Sequence record: MZ375294.1
Length of the DNA stretch: 36,575 nt
Direction: 5' to 3' (one strand)
Source: Escherichia phage T7
How positions within the stretch are numbered: the first letter of the stretch is position 1; the number at the start of each line of letters is the position of its first letter. This document shows positions 2,479 to 33,296 of this stretch, one piece after another. The notes under the pieces were generated by a model. It had not been told where the DNA came from. It searched no databases and worked only from the letters and a program-made list of their open reading frames with translations. The translations under genes were made by a program, and so were the position numbers.

Positions 2479-5130
2479 ATGAACACGATTAACATCGCTA
2501 AGAACGACTTCTCTGACATCGAACTGGCTGCTATCCCGTTCAACACTCTGGCTGACCATTACGGTGAGCGTTTAGCTCGCGAACAGTTGGCCCTTGAGCA
2601 TGAGTCTTACGAGATGGGTGAAGCACGCTTCCGCAAGATGTTTGAGCGTCAACTTAAAGCTGGTGAGGTTGCGGATAACGCTGCCGCCAAGCCTCTCATC
2701 ACTACCCTACTCCCTAAGATGATTGCACGCATCAACGACTGGTTTGAGGAAGTGAAAGCTAAGTGCGGCAAGCGCCCGACAGCCTTCCAGTTCCTGCAAG
2801 AAATCAAGCCGGAAGCCGTAGCGTACATCACCATTAAGACCACTCTGGCTTGCCTAACCAGTGCTGACAATACAACCGTTCAGGCTGCAGCAAGCGCAAT
2901 CGGTCGGGCCATTGAGGACGAGGCTCGCTTCGGTCGTATCCGTGACCTTGAAGCTAAGCACTTCAAGAAAAACGTTGAGGAACAACTCAACAAGCGCGTA
3001 GGGCACGTCTACAAGAAAGCATTTATGCGAGTTGTCGAGGCTGACATGCTCTCTAAGGGTCTACTCGGTGGCGAGGCGTGGTCTTCGTGGCATAAGGAAG
3101 ACTCTATTCATGTAGGAGTACGCTGCATCGAGATGCTCATTGAGTCAACCGGAATGGTTAGCTTACACCGCCAAAATGCTGGCGTAGTAGGTCAAGACTC
3201 TGAGACTATCGGACTCGCACCTGAATACGCTGAGGCTATCGCAACCCGTGCAGGTGCGCTGGCTGGCATCTCTCCGATGTTCCAACCTTGCGTAGTTCCT
3301 CCTAAGCCGTGGACTGGCATTACTGGTGGTGGCTATTGGGCTAACGGTCGTCGTCCTCTGGCGCTGGTGCGTACTCACAGTAAGAAAGCACTGATGCGCT
3401 ACGAAGACGTTTACATGCCTGAGGTGTACAAAGCGATTAACATTGCGCAAAACACCGCATGGAAAATCAACAAGAAAGTCCTAGCGGTCGCCAACGTAAT
3501 CACCAAGTGGAAGCATTGTCCGGTCGAGGACATCCCTGCGATTGAGCGTGAAGAACTCCCGATGAAACCGGAAGACATCGACATGAATCCTGAGGCTCTC
3601 ACCGCGTGGAAACGTGCTGCCGCTGCTGTGTACCGCAAGGACAAGGCTCGCAAGTCTCGCCGTATCAGCCTTGAGTTCATGCTTGAGCAAGCCAATAAGT
3701 TTGCTAACCATAAGGCCATCTGGTTCCCTTACAACATGGACTGGCGCGGTCGTGTTTACGCTGTGTCAATGTTCAACCCGCAAGGTAACGATATGACCAA
3801 AGGACTGCTTACGCTGGCGAAAGGTAAACCAATCGGTAAGGAAGGTTACTACTGGCTGAAAATCCACGGTGCAAACTGTGCGGGTGTCGATAAGGTTCCG
3901 TTCCCTGAGCGCATCAAGTTCATTGAGGAAAACCACGAGAACATCATGGCTTGCGCTAAGTCTCCACTGGAGAACACTTGGTGGGCTGAGCAAGATTCTC
4001 CGTTCTGCTTCCTTGCGTTCTGCTTTGAGTACGCTGGGGTACAGCACCACGGCCTGAGCTATAACTGCTCCCTTCCGCTGGCGTTTGACGGGTCTTGCTC
4101 TGGCATCCAGCACTTCTCCGCGATGCTCCGAGATGAGGTAGGTGGTCGCGCGGTTAACTTGCTTCCTAGTGAAACCGTTCAGGACATCTACGGGATTGTT
4201 GCTAAGAAAGTCAACGAGATTCTACAAGCAGACGCAATCAATGGGACCGATAACGAAGTAGTTACCGTGACCGATGAGAACACTGGTGAAATCTCTGAGA
4301 AAGTCAAGCTGGGCACTAAGGCACTGGCTGGTCAATGGCTGGCTTACGGTGTTACTCGCAGTGTGACTAAGCGTTCAGTCATGACGCTGGCTTACGGGTC
4401 CAAAGAGTTCGGCTTCCGTCAACAAGTGCTGGAAGATACCATTCAGCCAGCTATTGATTCCGGCAAGGGTCTGATGTTCACTCAGCCGAATCAGGCTGCT
4501 GGATACATGGCTAAGCTGATTTGGGAATCTGTGAGCGTGACGGTGGTAGCTGCGGTTGAAGCAATGAACTGGCTTAAGTCTGCTGCTAAGCTGCTGGCTG
4601 CTGAGGTCAAAGATAAGAAGACTGGAGAGATTCTTCGCAAGCGTTGCGCTGTGCATTGGGTAACTCCTGATGGTTTCCCTGTGTGGCAGGAATACAAGAA
4701 GCCTATTCAGACGCGCTTGAACCTGATGTTCCTCGGTCAGTTCCGCTTACAGCCTACCATTAACACCAACAAAGATAGCGAGATTGATGCACACAAACAG
4801 GAGTCTGGTATCGCTCCTAACTTTGTACACAGCCAAGACGGTAGCCACCTTCGTAAGACTGTAGTGTGGGCACACGAGAAGTACGGAATCGAATCTTTTG
4901 CACTGATTCACGACTCCTTCGGTACCATTCCGGCTGACGCTGCGAACCTGTTCAAAGCAGTGCGCGAAACTATGGTTGACACATATGAGTCTTGTGATGT
5001 ACTGGCTGATTTCTACGACCAGTTCGCTGACCAGTTGCACGAGTCTCAATTGGACAAAATGTCAGCACTTCCGGCTAAAGGTAACTTGAACCTCCGTGAC
5101 ATCTTAGAGTCGGACTTCGCGTTCGCGTAA
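2479..5130 (+). CDS. 1: T7 RNA polymerase (gene 1), single-subunit DNA-directed RNA polymerase
   Basis: 883-aa ORF starting MNTINIAKNDFSDIELAAIPF and ending ILESDFAFA. Confidence 0.98.
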   Translation: MNTINIAKNDFSDIELAAIPFNTLADHYGERLAREQLALEHESYEMGEARFRKMFERQLKAGEVADNAAAKPLITTLLPKMIARINDWFEEVKAKCGKRPTAFQFLQEIKPEAVAYITIKTTLACLTSADNTTVQAAASAIGRAIEDEARFGRIRDLEAKHFKKNVEEQLNKRVGHVYKKAFMRVVEADMLSKGLLGGEAWSSWHKEDSIHVGVRCIEMLIESTGMVSLHRQNAGVVGQDSETIGLAPEYAEAIATRAGALAGISPMFQPCVVPPKPWTGITGGGYWANGRRPLALVRTHSKKALMRYEDVYMPEVYKAINIAQNTAWKINKKVLAVANVITKWKHCPVEDIPAIEREELPMKPEDIDMNPEALTAWKRAAAAVYRKDKARKSRRISLEFMLEQANKFANHKAIWFPYNMDWRGRVYAVSMFNPQGNDMTKGLLTLAKGKPIGKEGYYWLKIHGANCAGVDKVPFPERIKFIEENHENIMACAKSPLENTWWAEQDSPFCFLAFCFEYAGVQHHGLSYNCSLPLAFDGSCSGIQHFSAMLRDEVGGRAVNLLPSETVQDIYGIVAKKVNEILQADAINGTDNEVVTVTDENTGEISEKVKLGTKALAGQWLAYGVTRSVTKRSVMTLAYGSKEFGFRQQVLEDTIQPAIDSGKGLMFTQPNQAAGYMAKLIWESVSVTVVAAVEAMNWLKSAAKLLAAEVKDKKTGEILRKRCAVHWVTPDGFPVWQEYKKPIQTRLNLMFLGQFRLQPTINTNKDSEIDAHKQESGIAPNFVHSQDGSHLRKTVVWAHEKYGIESFALIHDSFGTIPADAANLFKAVRETMVDTYESCDVLADFYDQFADQLHESQLDKMSALPAKGNLNLRDILESDFAFA

Positions 5131-7705: not shown

Positions 7706-7708
<3 letters not shown>

Positions 7709-7728
7709 TACGACTCACTATTAGGGAA
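7706..7728 (+). promoter_or_regulatory. T7 RNAP promoter phi2.5 (initiates with A)
   Basis: taatacgactcactattagggaa. Confidence 0.88.
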
Positions 7729-7773: not shown

Positions 7774-8352
7774 ATGGCTAAGAAGATTTTCACCTCTGCG
7801 CTGGGTACCGCTGAACCTTACGCTTACATCGCCAAGCCGGACTACGGCAACGAAGAGCGTGGCTTTGGGAACCCTCGTGGTGTCTATAAAGTTGACCTGA
7901 CTATTCCCAACAAAGACCCGCGCTGCCAGCGTATGGTCGATGAAATCGTGAAGTGTCACGAAGAGGCTTATGCTGCTGCCGTTGAGGAATACGAAGCTAA
8001 TCCACCTGCTGTAGCTCGTGGTAAGAAACCGCTGAAACCGTATGAGGGTGACATGCCGTTCTTCGATAACGGTGACGGTACGACTACCTTTAAGTTCAAA
8101 TGCTACGCGTCTTTCCAAGACAAGAAGACCAAAGAGACCAAGCACATCAATCTGGTTGTGGTTGACTCAAAAGGTAAGAAGATGGAAGACGTTCCGATTA
8201 TCGGTGGTGGCTCTAAGCTGAAAGTTAAATATTCTCTGGTTCCATACAAGTGGAACACTGCTGTAGGTGCGAGCGTTAAGCTGCAACTGGAATCCGTGAT
8301 GCTGGTCGAACTGGCTACCTTTGGTGGCGGTGAAGACGATTGGGCTGACTAA
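7774..8352 (+). CDS. 2.5: Single-stranded DNA-binding protein gp2.5, truncated by premature TAA (192 aa; acidic C-terminal tail codons remain in frame downstream to 8472)
   Basis: ORF MAKKIFTSALGTAEPYAYIAKPDYGNEERGF...GGEDDWAD then TAA at 8350-8352; same frame continues VEENGYVASGSAKASKPRDEESWDEDDEESEEADEDGDF to TAA at 8470-8472. Confidence 0.9.
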   Translation: MAKKIFTSALGTAEPYAYIAKPDYGNEERGFGNPRGVYKVDLTIPNKDPRCQRMVDEIVKCHEEAYAAAVEEYEANPPAVARGKKPLKPYEGDMPFFDNGDGTTTFKFKCYASFQDKKTKETKHINLVVVDSKGKKMEDVPIIGGGSKLKVKYSLVPYKWNTAVGASVKLQLESVMLVELATFGGGEDDWAD

Positions 8353-8472
8353 GTTGAAGAGAACGGCTATGTTGCCTCTGGTTCTGCCAAAGCGAGCAAA
8401 CCACGCGACGAAGAAAGCTGGGACGAAGACGACGAAGAGTCCGAGGAAGCAGACGAAGACGGAGACTTCTAA

Positions 8473-8892
8473 GTGGAACTGCGGGAGAAAATCCTTGAGC
8501 GAATCAAGGTGACTTCCTCTGGGTGTTGGGAGTGGCAGGGCGCTACGAACAATAAAGGGTACGGGCAGGTGTGGTGCAGCAATACCGGAAAGGTTGTCTA
8601 CTGTCATCGCGTAATGTCTAATGCTCCGAAAGGTTCTACCGTCCTGCACTCCTGTGATAATCCATTATGTTGTAACCCTGCACACCGTTCCATAGGAACT
8701 CCAAAAGAGAACTCCACTGACATGGTAAATAAGGGTCGCTCACACAAGGGGTATAAACTTTCAGACGAAGACGTAATGGCAATCATGGAGTCCAGCGAGT
8801 CCAATGTATCCTTAGCTCGCACCTATGGTGTCTCCCAACAGACTATTTGTGATATACGCAAAGGGAGGCGACATGGCAGGTTACGGCGCTAA
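8473..8892 (+). CDS. 2.8: Gene 2.8 HNH-endonuclease-like protein (GTG start)
   Basis: 139-aa ORF with HNH-like motif HSCDNPLCCNPAH and Cys/His pairs. Confidence 0.75.
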   Translation: MELREKILERIKVTSSGCWEWQGATNNKGYGQVWCSNTGKVVYCHRVMSNAPKGSTVLHSCDNPLCCNPAHRSIGTPKENSTDMVNKGRSHKGYKLSDEDVMAIMESSESNVSLARTYGVSQQTICDIRKGRRHGRLRR

Positions 8893-9322
8893 AGGAATCC
8901 GAAAGGTTGGAGCGTTTCGCTCTGGCCTAGAGGACAAGGTTTCAAAGCAGTTGGAATCAAAAGGTATTAAATTCGAGTATGAAGAGTGGAAAGTGCCTTA
9001 TGTAATTCCGGCGAGCAATCACACTTACACTCCAGACTTCTTACTTCCAAACGGTATATTCGTTGAGACAAAGGGTCTGTGGGAAAGCGATGATAGAAAG
9101 AAGCACTTATTAATTAGGGAGCAGCACCCCGAGCTAGACATCCGTATTGTCTTCTCAAGCTCACGTACTAAGTTATACAAAGGTTCTCCAACGTCTTATG
9201 GAGAGTTCTGCGAAAAGCATGGTATTAAGTTCGCTGATAAACTGATACCTGCTGAGTGGATAAAGGAACCCAAGAAGGAGGTCCCCTTTGATAGATTAAA
9301 AAGGAAAGGAGGAAAGAAATAA
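8873..9322 (+). CDS. 3: Endonuclease I, Holliday-junction resolvase (gene 3)
   Basis: 149-aa ORF MAGYGAKGIRKVGAFRSGLEDKVSKQLESKGIKFEYEE... Confidence 0.93.
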   Translation: MAGYGAKGIRKVGAFRSGLEDKVSKQLESKGIKFEYEEWKVPYVIPASNHTYTPDFLLPNGIFVETKGLWESDDRKKHLLIREQHPELDIRIVFSSSRTKLYKGSPTSYGEFCEKHGIKFADKLIPAEWIKEPKKEVPFDRLKRKGGKK

Positions 9323-9777
9323 TGGCTCGTGTACAGTTTAAACAACGTGAATCTACTGACGCAATCTTTGTTCACTGCTCGGCTACCAAGCCAAGTCAGA
9401 ATGTTGGTGTCCGTGAGATTCGCCAGTGGCACAAAGAGCAGGGTTGGCTCGATGTGGGATACCACTTTATCATCAAGCGAGACGGTACTGTGGAGGCAGG
9501 ACGAGATGAGATGGCTGTAGGCTCTCACGCTAAGGGTTACAACCACAACTCTATCGGCGTCTGCCTTGTTGGTGGTATCGACGATAAAGGTAAGTTCGAC
9601 GCTAACTTTACGCCAGCCCAAATGCAATCCCTTCGCTCACTGCTTGTCACACTGCTGGCTAAGTACGAAGGCGCTGTGCTTCGCGCCCATCATGAGGTGG
9701 CGCCGAAGGCTTGCCCTTCGTTCGACCTTAAGCGTTGGTGGGAGAAGAACGAACTGGTCACTTCTGACCGTGGATAA
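9322..9777 (+). CDS. 3.5: T7 lysozyme, N-acetylmuramoyl-L-alanine amidase and RNA polymerase inhibitor (gene 3.5)
   Basis: 151-aa ORF MARVQFKQRESTDAIFVHCSATK...; zinc amidase-type His/Cys residues. Confidence 0.95.
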   Translation: MARVQFKQRESTDAIFVHCSATKPSQNVGVREIRQWHKEQGWLDVGYHFIIKRDGTVEAGRDEMAVGSHAKGYNHNSIGVCLVGGIDDKGKFDANFTPAQMQSLRSLLVTLLAKYEGAVLRAHHEVAPKACPSFDLKRWWEKNELVTSDRG

Positions 9778-11647
<1,870 letters not shown>

Positions 11648-12070: not shown

Positions 12071-14185
12071 ATGATCGTTTCTGACATCGAAGATAACGCC
12101 CTCTTAGAGAGCGTCACTAAGTTCCACTGCGGGGTTATCTACGACTACTCCACCGCTGAGTACGTAAGCTACCGTCCGAGTGACTTCGGTGCGTATCTGG
12201 ATGCGCTGGAAGCCGAGGTTGCACGAGGCGGTCTTATTGTGTTCCACAACGGTCACAAGTATGACGTTCCTGCATTGACCAAACTGGCAAAGTTGCAATT
12301 GAACCGAGAGTTCCACCTTCCTCGTGAGAACTGTATTGACACCCTTGTGTTGTCACGTTTGATTCATTCCAACCTCAAGGACACCGATATGGGTCTTCTG
12401 CGTTCCGGCAAGTTGCCCGGAAAACGCTTTGGGTCTCACGCTTTGGAGGCGTGGGGTTATCGCTTAGGCGAGATGAAGGGTGAATACAAAGACGACTTTA
12501 AGCGTATGCTTGAAGAGCAGGGTGAAGAATACGTTGACGGAATGGAGTGGTGGAACTTCAACGAAGAGATGATGGACTATAACGTTCAGGACGTTGTGGT
12601 AACTAAAGCTCTCCTTGAGAAGCTACTCTCTGACAAACATTACTTCCCTCCTGAGATTGACTTTACGGACGTAGGATACACTACGTTCTGGTCAGAATCC
12701 CTTGAGGCCGTTGACATTGAACATCGTGCTGCATGGCTGCTCGCTAAACAAGAGCGCAACGGGTTCCCGTTTGACACAAAAGCAATCGAAGAGTTGTACG
12801 TAGAGTTAGCTGCTCGCCGCTCTGAGTTGCTCCGTAAATTGACCGAAACGTTCGGCTCGTGGTATCAGCCTAAAGGTGGCACTGAGATGTTCTGCCATCC
12901 GCGAACAGGTAAGCCACTACCTAAATACCCTCGCATTAAGACACCTAAAGTTGGTGGTATCTTTAAGAAGCCTAAGAACAAGGCACAGCGAGAAGGCCGT
13001 GAGCCTTGCGAACTTGATACCCGCGAGTACGTTGCTGGTGCTCCTTACACCCCAGTTGAACATGTTGTGTTTAACCCTTCGTCTCGTGACCACATTCAGA
13101 AGAAACTCCAAGAGGCTGGGTGGGTCCCGACCAAGTACACCGATAAGGGTGCTCCTGTGGTGGACGATGAGGTACTCGAAGGAGTACGTGTAGATGACCC
13201 TGAGAAGCAAGCCGCTATCGACCTCATTAAAGAGTACTTGATGATTCAGAAGCGAATCGGACAGTCTGCTGAGGGAGACACAGCATGGCTTCGTTATGTT
13301 GCTGAGGATGGTAAGATTCATGGTTCTGTTAACCCTAATGGAGCAGTTACGGGTCGTGCGACCCATGCGTTCCCAAACCTTGCGCAAATTCCGGGTGTAC
13401 GTTCTCCTTATGGAGAGCAGTGTCGCGCTGCTTTTGGCGCTGAGCACCATTTGGATGGGATAACTGGTAAGCCTTGGGTTCAGGCTGGCATCGACGCATC
13501 CGGTCTTGAGCTACGCTGCTTGGCTCACTTCATGGCTCGCTTTGATAACGGCGAGTACGCTCACGAGATTCTTAACGGCGACATCCACACTAAGAACCAG
13601 ATAGCTGCTGAACTACCTACCCGAGATAACGCTAAGACGTTCATCTATGGGTTCCTCTATGGTGCTGGTGATGAGAAGATTGGACAGATTGTTGGTGCTG
13701 GTAAAGAGCGCGGTAAGGAACTCAAGAAGAAATTCCTTGAGAACACCCCCGCGATTGCAGCACTCCGCGAGTCTATCCAACAGACACTTGTCGAGTCCTC
13801 TCAATGGGTAGCTGGTGAGCAACAAGTCAAGTGGAAACGCCGCTGGATTAAAGGTCTGGATGGTCGTAAGGTACACGTTCGTAGTCCTCACGCTGCCTTG
13901 AATACCCTACTGCAATCTGCTGGTGCTCTCATCTGCAAACTGTGGATTATCAAGACCGAAGAGATGCTCGTAGAGAAAGGCTTGAAGCATGGCTGGGATG
14001 GGGACTTTGCGTACATGGCATGGGTACATGATGAAATCCAAGTAGGCTGCCGTACCGAAGAGATTGCTCAGGTGGTCATTGAGACCGCACAAGAAGCGAT
14101 GCGCTGGGTTGGAGACCACTGGAACTTCCGGTGTCTTCTGGATACCGAAGGTAAGATGGGTCCTAATTGGGCGATTTGCCACTGA
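12071..14185 (+). CDS. 5: T7 DNA polymerase (gene 5), family A polymerase with 3'-5' exonuclease
   Basis: 704-aa [29 protein letters not shown]...; family A polymerase-type palm residues near the C-terminus. Confidence 0.97.
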
Positions 14186-31634: not shown

Positions 31635-33296
31635 ATGGCTAACGTAATTAAAACCGTTTTGACTTACCAGTTAGATGGCTCCAATCGTGATTTTAATATC
31701 CCGTTTGAGTATCTAGCCCGTAAGTTCGTAGTGGTAACTCTTATTGGTGTAGACCGAAAGGTCCTTACGATTAATACAGACTATCGCTTTGCTACACGTA
31801 CTACTATCTCTCTGACAAAGGCTTGGGGTCCAGCCGATGGCTACACGACCATCGAGTTACGTCGAGTAACCTCCACTACCGACCGATTGGTTGACTTTAC
31901 GGATGGTTCAATCCTCCGCGCGTATGACCTTAACGTCGCTCAGATTCAAACGATGCACGTAGCGGAAGAGGCCCGTGACCTCACTACGGATACTATCGGT
32001 GTCAATAACGATGGTCACTTGGATGCTCGTGGTCGTCGAATTGTGAACCTAGCGAACGCCGTGGATGACCGCGATGCTGTTCCGTTTGGTCAACTAAAGA
32101 CCATGAACCAGAACTCATGGCAAGCACGTAATGAAGCCTTACAGTTCCGTAATGAGGCTGAGACTTTCAGAAACCAAGCGGAGGGCTTTAAGAACGAGTC
32201 CAGTACCAACGCTACGAACACAAAGCAGTGGCGCGATGAGACCAAGGGTTTCCGAGACGAAGCCAAGCGGTTCGAGAATACGGCTGGTCAATACGCTACA
32301 TCTGCTGGGAACTCTGCTTCCGCTGCGCATCAATCTGAGGTAAACGCTGAGAACTCTGCCACAGCATCCGCTAACTCTGCTCATTTGGCAGAACAGCAAG
32401 CAGACCGTGCGGAACGTGAGGCAGACAAGCTGGAAAATTACAATGGATTGGCTGGTGCAATTGATAAGGTAGATGGAACCAATGTGTACTGGAAAGGAAA
32501 TATTCACGCTAACGGGCGCCTTTACATGACCACAAACGGTTTTGACTGTGGCCAGTATCAACAGTTCTTTGGTGGTGTCACTAATCGTTACTCTGTCATG
32601 GAGTGGGGAGATGAGAACGGATGGCTGATGTATGTTCAACGTAGAGAGTGGACAACAGCGATAGGCGGTAACATCCAGTTAGTAGTAAACGGACAGATCA
32701 TCACCCAAGGTGGAGCCATGACCGGTCAGCTAAAATTGCAGAATGGGCATGTTCTTCAATTAGAGTCCGCATCCGACAAGGCGCACTATATTCTATCTAA
32801 AGATGGTAACAGGAATAACTGGTACATTGGTAGAGGGTCAGATAACAACAATGACTGTACCTTCCACTCCTATGTACATGGTACGACCTTAACACTCAAG
32901 CAGGACTATGCAGTAGTTAACAAACACTTCCACGTAGGTCAGGCCGTTGTGGCCACTGATGGTAATATTCAAGGTACTAAGTGGGGAGGTAAATGGCTGG
33001 ATGCTTACCTACGTGACAGCTTCGTTGCGAAGTCCAAGGCGTGGACTCAGGTGTGGTCTGGTAGTGCTGGCGGTGGGGTAAGTGTGACTGTTTCACAGGA
33101 TCTCCGCTTCCGCAATATCTGGATTAAGTGTGCCAACAACTCTTGGAACTTCTTCCGTACTGGCCCCGATGGAATCTACTTCATAGCCTCTGATGGTGGA
33201 TGGTTACGATTCCAAATACACTCCAACGGTCTCGGATTCAAGAATATTGCAGACAGTCATTCAGTACCTAAGGCAATCATGGTGGAGAACGAGTAA
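31635..33296 (+). CDS. 17: Tail fiber protein gp17
   Basis: 553-aa ORF MANVIKTVLTYQLDGSNRDFNIPFEYLARKFVVVTLIGVDRKVL... Confidence 0.95.
   Translation: MANVIKTVLTYQLDGSNRDFNIPFEYLARKFVVVTLIGVDRKVLTINTDYRFATRTTISLTKAWGPADGYTTIELRRVTSTTDRLVDFTDGSILRAYDLNVAQIQTMHVAEEARDLTTDTIGVNNDGHLDARGRRIVNLANAVDDRDAVPFGQLKTMNQNSWQARNEALQFRNEAETFRNQAEGFKNESSTNATNTKQWRDETKGFRDEAKRFENTAGQYATSAGNSASAAHQSEVNAENSATASANSAHLAEQQADRAEREADKLENYNGLAGAIDKVDGTNVYWKGNIHANGRLYMTTNGFDCGQYQQFFGGVTNRYSVMEWGDENGWLMYVQRREWTTAIGGNIQLVVNGQIITQGGAMTGQLKLQNGHVLQLESASDKAHYILSKDGNRNNWYIGRGSDNNNDCTFHSYVHGTTLTLKQDYAVVNKHFHVGQAVVATDGNIQGTKWGGKWLDAYLRDSFVAKSKAWTQVWSGSAGGGVSVTVSQDLRFRNIWIKCANNSWNFFRTGPDGIYFIASDGGWLRFQIHSNGLGFKNIADSHSVPKAIMVENE

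Follow-up and report, generated by a model that had tools for sequence, protein, structure and literature searches.

The single-stranded DNA-binding (SSB) protein gp2.5 of bacteriophage T7 carries an acidic C-terminal tail that is a textbook example of an essential interaction hub in the replisome. The engineered truncation gp2.5-delta21C is lethal in vivo, and an earlier amber mutant of gene 2.5 was isolated and grown on suppressor hosts. The tail is described as essential for viability, and its removal as one that raises the affinity for single-stranded DNA (ssDNA) and abolishes interactions with partner proteins (PMC2965674). It docks on the front basic patch of the T7 DNA polymerase (K587/K589/R590/R591), and in vitro primer extension is slowed, not abolished, by tail-less gp2.5 (PMC12339929). 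Suppressors in gene 5 of gp2.5 lacking its C-terminal phenylalanine are described by Marintcheva et al. (Mol Microbiol 2009). Here, we analyse a T7 genome of 36,575 bp (MZ375294.1; hereafter the window) in which gene 2.5 is interrupted by a premature ochre codon, E193*. Our results indicate that E193* is a real allele in a laboratory T7 reduced by means of clustered regularly interspaced short palindromic repeats (CRISPR), and that it was probably made and enriched at a Cas9 target and tolerated in an evolved background.

[quoted passage not shown] In the T7 experiment gp2.5 was one of the designed genes listed as 'deleted or disrupted', and 23.5% of the T7 point mutations were located in spacer or protospacer adjacent motif (PAM) regions (PMC9825161).

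A premature stop codon in gene 2.5

Gene 2.5 of the window lies behind the promoter phi2.5 and between gene 2 and gene 2.8, as expected for the gp2.5-type SSB of T7 (Table 1). The open reading frame (ORF) that starts with the ATG at 7774 comprises 192 codons, ends with ...GGEDDWAD and is closed by an in-frame TAA. Past this TAA, the same frame continues for 39 sense codons (VEENGYVASGSAKASKPRDEESWDEDDEESEEADEDGDF; VEENGY...DGDF) up to the native TAA at 8470–8472, which is directly followed by the GTG start codon of gene 2.8 at 8473. Alignment to reference T7 (V01146) attributes the premature stop to a G>T substitution at reference position 9734, which converts codon 193 from GAA to TAA. This is the sole difference between the window and V01146 within gene 2.5, and E193* is the only premature stop among all retained genes of the window. 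The first-pass annotation of this sequence had proposed a gp2.5 frame closed after 192 codons by a single GAA-to-TAA change, with removal of the acidic, Phe-ended tail. The ORF reading, the alignment to the reference gene and the continuation of the frame to a second TAA just before gene 2.8 bear out each of these points.

Read from the sequence, translation ends after residue 192, and the predicted gp2.5 has no tail but keeps its oligonucleotide/oligosaccharide-binding (OB) fold intact. The 192-aa product is 100% identical to residues 1–192 of PDB 1JE5 (gp2.5 delta26C, 206 aa). A homolog with 97% identity was modelled with AlphaFold on the basis of a 48-sequence alignment; the last strand of the model spans residues 166–179, and the predicted local distance difference test (pLDDT) score is <50 at residues 184–190 and 203–233. 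Given this identity to 1JE5 and the modelled position of the last strand, the OB fold is untouched by the truncation. All homologs carry PF21265 (gp2.5-like OB fold), and the OB-fold core is likewise present in the window product.

The 40 C-terminal residues that were lost consist of the linker motif after D192, with the conserved residues E196, G198 and A201, and the whole acidic tail. In the intact protein this region normally fills the DNA-binding cleft, contributes to the stability of the dimer and makes the contacts with the basic patches of the polymerase and with the helicase. An acidic tail is present in all 48 natural homologs (59–93% identity to the first aligned homolog), ending in F (46 sequences) or Y (2 sequences), and no tail-less form occurs among the 48 homologs examined. 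The window product thus lacks the acidic, aromatic-ended tail that is the hallmark of the gp2.5 type.

Table 1. Features of the gene 2.5 region and of genes 4 and 5 in the window.
Feature	Position in window	Strand	Remarks
T7 promoter phi2.5, TAATACGACTCACTATTAGGGAA, +1 at 7723	7706–7728	+	identical to the reference by alignment; annotated there at 9107
Truncated gene 2.5 ORF, 192 codons + TAA; complete OB-fold core of the ssDNA-binding protein	7774–8352	+	
Candidate SpCas9 target: protospacer GCTGAC[G>T]AAGTTGAAGAGAA (8344–8363) + CGG PAM (8364–8366)	8344–8366	+	
Ochre codon from G>T at 8350 (reference 9734; E193*)	8350–8352	+	T also in seven sibling records
Orphaned coding sequence of the acidic C-terminal tail, 39 codons + native TAA; untranslated, without in-frame start	8353–8472	+	
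Gene 2.8 (non-essential) with E70A (8681) and L72R (8687–8688, TA>GT)	8473–8892	+	start abuts native gene 2.5 stop
Gene 4 primase-helicase with M316I (10836), Walker A loop GSGMGKST to GSGIGKST; acidic C-terminal tail ...DWSNDTDF intact	9889–11589	+	
Gene 5 DNA polymerase with A8D (12093) and K404T (13281)	12071–14185	+	alignment to PDB T7 polymerase; candidate permissive or suppressor background

Sibling clones and source lineage

E193* is a genuine, inherited nonsense mutation. A probe of 60 nt centred on the stop codon, matched against phage records, gave a 100% match with seven records, namely those of clones 250L, 270L, 280L, 280S, 290L, 300L and 300S. These records (MZ375281, 285, 287, 288, 289, 291 and 292) carry the T allele, and no other record of the phage collection does. 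In 159 other T7-like records the probe has one mismatch, and all of these carry G. The depositors annotated an SSB gene of 579 nt in all seven records with the T allele. Moreover, E193* is found on differing deletion backgrounds; clone 280S, for instance, retains gene 1.7.

The window is a complete T7 genome including both terminal repeats. Compared to the reference, it has nine deletions (genes 0.4–0.6, 1.4, 1.7, 3.8, 4.3, 4.7, 5.3, 7.7 and 19.5) and, outside the genome ends, ~45 substitutions. Its best database matches are the records entitled 'Mutant Escherichia phage T7 clone T7_nnnL/S' (MZ375233–292), which almost certainly come from the CiPGr study of Yuan et al., and the nine deletions agree with the CiPGr design. 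The window is a laboratory T7 derivative from the CiPGr experiment or a very close relative. The nearest deposited clone, 300S, differs from it at no fewer than 23 variant sites (at least that number), and the window is therefore a further clone of the same late population. A defective or synthetic genome had been considered at first pass; the non-wild-type part of that suggestion holds, as this is a laboratory-engineered and evolved, genome-reduced T7. Both terminal repeats contain the same 18-bp deletion (reference 99–116, between GGGTT repeats; window 100 and ~36,498), and a C added to a C-run and a nearby G>T are likewise present in both copies. The terminal repeat measures ~143 bp versus 160 bp because the 18-bp deletion and the added C occur in both copies.

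A candidate Cas9 target at the site of the mutation

We compared the site, in reference coordinates, across 12 late clones and the window (13 late genomes). Eight genomes, the window and seven deposited clones, carry 9734 G>T and hence E193* with a gp2.5 of 192 aa. In clone 290S (MZ375290) the same nucleotide is altered by G>A, which gives E193K and keeps the tail. Clone 270S (MZ375286, 7655–8395) carries an insertion of GA (GTTGAAGAGAACGG to GTTGAAGAGAGAACGG), which shifts the frame after codon 196 and yields a 246-aa protein with a basic tail. In this frameshift product, a Lys/Arg-rich stretch that extends into gene 2.8 takes the place of the acidic tail. The site is unaltered in clones 250S, 260L and 260S. 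One of the three lesions is present in all eight deposited clones from transfers 270–300, versus only one of the four from transfers 250–260.

Reference position 9734 falls in exactly one NGG protospacer, GCTGACGAAGTTGAAGAGAA followed by CGG, at a distance of 14 nt from the PAM; the density of NGG sites is such that nearly every base falls in some NGG protospacer. The GA insertion of clone 270S coincides with the cut position predicted for Cas9, 3 bp 5' of the CGG PAM. That one nucleotide was hit by two different substitutions, and that E193K leaves the tail in place, speaks for the DNA target, and not the protein, as the object of selection. Because gp2.5 was among the designed genes in CiPGr, we count gene 2.5 as targeted by the spacer library.

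The density of variants points in the same direction. Across the 13 late genomes, gene 2.5 has 12.9 variants per kb versus 2.2–5.3 per kb for genes 4, 5 and 6, which is the highest variant density among the replication genes. A G>T at reference 9588 (equivalent to window 8202–8204) destroys a CGG PAM and gives gp2.5 G144V. G144V occurs together with K150R in gp2.5 of clones 250S, 260S, 270S and 290S, as a separate second hit in gene 2.5. This second hit suggests that the essential gene 2.5 was under repeated Cas9 attack. E193* thus probably arose at the candidate Cas9-targeted protospacer in gene 2.5, as a cut-associated or escape mutation, and would have been retained because it would reduce cleavage in the host with the spacer library.

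Growth on a non-suppressor host

E. coli MG1655 is a non-suppressor strain. The CiPGr clones were purified from plaques and tested on MG1655 without plasmids (PMC9825161), and the sibling clone T7_300L (MZ375291) carries E193*. T7_300L had a burst size of 2.1, versus 143 for the wild type, and was genetically stable over 12 transfers on its original host, with a change in gp17 as the only one noted (PMC9825161). Between transfers 250 and 300, E193* is present in five of the six L clones and in two of the six S clones, so that among contemporaries there is no association with smaller plaques. As is apparent from the sibling clones and the source paper, phage with E193* still forms plaques on a non-suppressor host.

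The window contains no tRNA gene that could serve as a phage-borne suppressor, no duplicate of gene 2.5 or its tail, and no in-frame start (ATG, GTG, TTG or other) in the orphaned tail. E193* is thus not obviously a conditional-lethal allele. The first-pass annotation had listed, as one option, an allele in need of suppression or complementation, which does not fit with plaques on plasmid-free MG1655 or with the lack of a tRNA gene, second copy or restart in the window. It had also stated that truncated gp2.5 does not support growth of T7. A severe cost is compatible with the low burst size of T7_300L, whereas inviability is not compatible with sibling phages that plate. It is plausible that E193* is an unacknowledged contributor to the ~70-fold drop in burst size of the 'minimal' clone T7_300L.

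Polymerase background and its possible role in the tolerance of tail loss

The DNA polymerase of the window differs from the PDB T7 polymerase only by A8D and K404T, and its front basic patch K587/K589/R590/R591 is intact. K404T is found from clone 90L and is present in every clone from 200L on, and it therefore predates E193*. In molecular dynamics, K404 contacts duplex DNA (PMC5984650). A8D was already present in clones 150S and 240L, both with an intact tail. Of the 11 genomes in which the E193 site carries a lesion, 10 have A8D, clone 280S being the exception, and none of the three genomes with an unaltered site has it. A8D is located outside every NGG protospacer, and thus it is not an escape mutation. 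It adjoins the catalytic residues D5 and E7 of the exonuclease, which are mutated in the standard exo- enzyme (PMC7073461).

A8D and K404T are therefore candidate suppressors of tail loss, by association only. The suppressors known from gene 5 reportedly consist of G371K, and of T258M combined with A411T; these published substitutions are absent from the window polymerase, in which residues 258, 371 and 411 are wild type according to the alignment to the PDB polymerase. None of the mutations in the compared genomes is exclusively linked to E193*, with A8D present in seven of the eight E193* genomes. Besides A8D, the E193* genomes are distinguished from clone 250S only by gp12 T468A and gp16 R806C. 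Both are also found in the frameshift clone 270S and are therefore likely lineage markers. A8D as a mutator, through a defective exonuclease, found no support, as the number of substitutions was 34–45 per A8D-positive versus 36–42 per A8D-negative genome and the counts of private variants overlapped.

The evolved background would make the loss of the tail survivable through K404T, which alters a DNA-contacting residue and was fixed ~50 transfers earlier, and A8D, which is located beside D5/E7. Replication might then proceed slowly, with a tightly binding SSB that is displaced by the polymerase without help from the tail. The intact acidic, Phe-ended tails of gp4 and of the host SSB could still engage the polymerase; the T7 polymerase is reported to bind the tail of E. 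coli SSB (PMC6582349). Any single element of this mechanism, as we infer it, is tentative and doubtful rather than likely.

Alternative explanations

An artefact of sequencing, assembly or annotation, with G as the true base at 8350, is extremely improbable. The base calls at 8350 rest on deposited assemblies and not on reads, but the same T is found in seven sibling genomes that were assembled and deposited separately and have different deletion backgrounds (280S retains gene 1.7), and neighbouring clones read G, A or an insertion, so that the site was resolved clone by clone. A sequencing error, which had been among the options raised at first pass, was rejected on the grounds of this T shared by seven independently assembled siblings. 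E193* might also be a leaky or conditional-lethal nonsense allele, in which growth depends on full-length gp2.5 obtained by ochre readthrough, from a host suppressor or from co-infecting intact genomes. Co-infection must have been common in serial transfers of ~10^9 phage on 10^9 cells; however, the clones were purified as single plaques on plasmid-free MG1655, where T7_300L also went through one-step growth curves and 12 transfers, and the consensus assemblies of all eight genomes read T. Since gp2.5 is abundant, rare readthrough would still give some full-length molecules, but both release factors recognise UAA, termination is efficient in the context UAA-G, and the window is without a tRNA gene. 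The literature does call the tail essential for viability (PMC2965674), in support of a hidden dependence on full-length protein. Yet, gp2.5 without its terminal Phe is dominant lethal according to the title of Marintcheva et al. (2009), and a trace of full-length protein amid an excess of tail-less protein should therefore not rescue growth. We consider such a dependence quite improbable.

Somewhat less remote, though still unlikely, is that the loss of the tail was itself adaptive, because tighter ssDNA binding improved break repair, recombination or replication in a lineage with many deletions and harassed by Cas9. E193* and the 270S frameshift with its basic tail are two independent alleles that destroy the tail, but the insertion of the latter is exactly at the predicted Cas9 cut. 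A PAM-distal base is a weak escape position, yet this same nucleotide was hit by two different substitutions, of which E193K retains the whole tail, and G>T changes could have created stops at ~15 other Glu codons of the tail, none of which was seen in the compared genomes. Furthermore, E193* was found in five of the six large-plaque clones of transfers 250–300, and it persisted for 12 transfers on the plain host with no reversion reported, whereas all 48 natural homologs retain the tail and the burst size of T7_300L was just 2.1. In our view, generation and enrichment of E193* at the Cas9 target is the most likely explanation.

Several observations weigh against this origin at a Cas9 target and against tolerance by the polymerase background. 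At 14 nt from the PAM, the mutated base is outside the classical 12-nt seed, and synonymous seed mutations were possible in this protospacer but none was seen among the compared clones. With a library of mixed spacers, escape from a single one would bring only a small gain per generation, which alone may not explain the takeover by E193*. The deposited clones were picked by plaque size and killing curve and are not a random sample. A8D is absent from the E193* clone 280S, K404T is fixed in all late clones, so that it allows no association test, and A8D-positive genomes have no excess of mutations, which gives no hint of a defective exonuclease or a mutator effect. Some full-length gp2.5 may come from a minority allele or from readthrough at a low level. 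Finally, the burst size of 2.1 is not assignable to E193*, given ~40 other substitutions that include a G>T at +1 of the promoter phi10.

Other mutations in the window

The promoter phi10 (class III), from which the major capsid gene is transcribed, carries this +1 G>T at window 19915 (reference 22904; TAATACGACTCACTATAGGGAGA to ...TATATGGAGA). The substitution is present in all 10 late genomes that were compared over their full length, and from its sequence it would be expected to weaken the strongest promoter of T7. The T7 RNA polymerase (gene 1, window 2479–5130) has the substitutions R96C, V137A, Q184R, E245G and P862S, of which V137A and Q184R were also found in 10 of these 10 genomes. 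These two shared changes may be co-adapted with the change at phi10 +1 and with an A>G at reference 405 (coordinate of the phiOL promoter). The tail fibre gene 17 (window 31635–33296) has K214E, R542H and N546K. R542H and N546K map to the receptor-binding tip at the C-terminus and may be adaptations to the K-12 host of the 300 transfers.

In gene 2.8, E70A and L72R alter the CCNPEHLSIG motif of the HNH-like gp2.8, and both are located inside NGG protospacers. TA>GT is fixed, being found in each of the 13 late genomes, and the A>C that causes E70A is private to the window. Judged by their sequence context, E70A and L72R look like CRISPR escape. M316I in the gene 4 primase-helicase is common to clones 280S and 300S, and its G>T also removes a TGG PAM.

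Implications

Plaque-forming phages with only residues 1–192 of gp2.5 show that the requirement for the tail can be bypassed or is leakier than the textbook view suggests, and the frameshifted basic tail of clone 270S adds to this evidence. The viability of tail-less gp2.5 in vivo is unexpected, and the source paper (PMC9825161) is silent on it. It is quite possible, if short of probable, that the gp2.5 tail is genetically dispensable in a T7 that is devoid of several accessory genes and has the polymerase substitution K404T, alone or combined with A8D. If this is true, a bypass route exists for the coupling of SSB, polymerase and helicase. For example, an altered grip of the polymerase on DNA or an altered exonuclease site might allow it to strip the SSB or to strand-displace without docking of the tail, with the tails of gp4 and host SSB as substitutes. 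The deposited clones would then be ready material for mapping this route, and the two polymerase substitutions A8D and K404T are flagged as testable.

For the smallest T7 (T7_300L), the truncation, the phi10 +1 change and ~40 other substitutions confound the attribution of its poor growth to gene loss. The same case bears on the design of the method, because an essential gene in a Cas9 spacer library can push damaging escape alleles to high frequency.

Comparison with known systems

The mutation resembles known SpCas9 escape mutations of phage (Yuan et al., 2022) in that it falls in an NGG protospacer of a gene targeted by the library, where three alleles converge and one of them is an indel at the cut site. 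It differs from them in that the E193* base is 14 nt from the PAM and not in the seed or PAM, and in that E193* costs a domain of an 'essential' protein despite synonymous alternatives.

The gene 5 suppressors described by Marintcheva et al. (2009) are a precedent for a lethal tail defect that is bypassed by changes in the polymerase, and the window polymerase also has two changes, one of them at a residue that contacts DNA. In contrast to that case, the substitutions in the window are A8D and K404T, and the whole tail is missing instead of the terminal Phe only. Like the earlier nonsense mutant of gene 2.5, the window represents a phage that can be propagated with a nonsense allele of this gene. 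That mutant was amber, however, whereas the window has an ochre allele, which was propagated on a K-12 strain without a suppressor.

The closest match is with the engineered truncations gp2.5-delta26C (1JE5) and gp2.5-delta21C, which are the same protein with the acidic tail gone and the OB fold kept, and which bind ssDNA more tightly and are less readily displaced by the T7 polymerase. Compared to delta26C, the window product loses 40 residues, 14 more, including the conserved segment EVEENGYVA. Furthermore, its truncation is encoded in a replicating phage genome, in contrast to the plasmid-expressed delta26C and delta21C. The type of truncation was thus already known, and its viability in vivo is the new part: tail loss has been held incompatible with viability in the literature, and the sibling phages of the window nevertheless plate.

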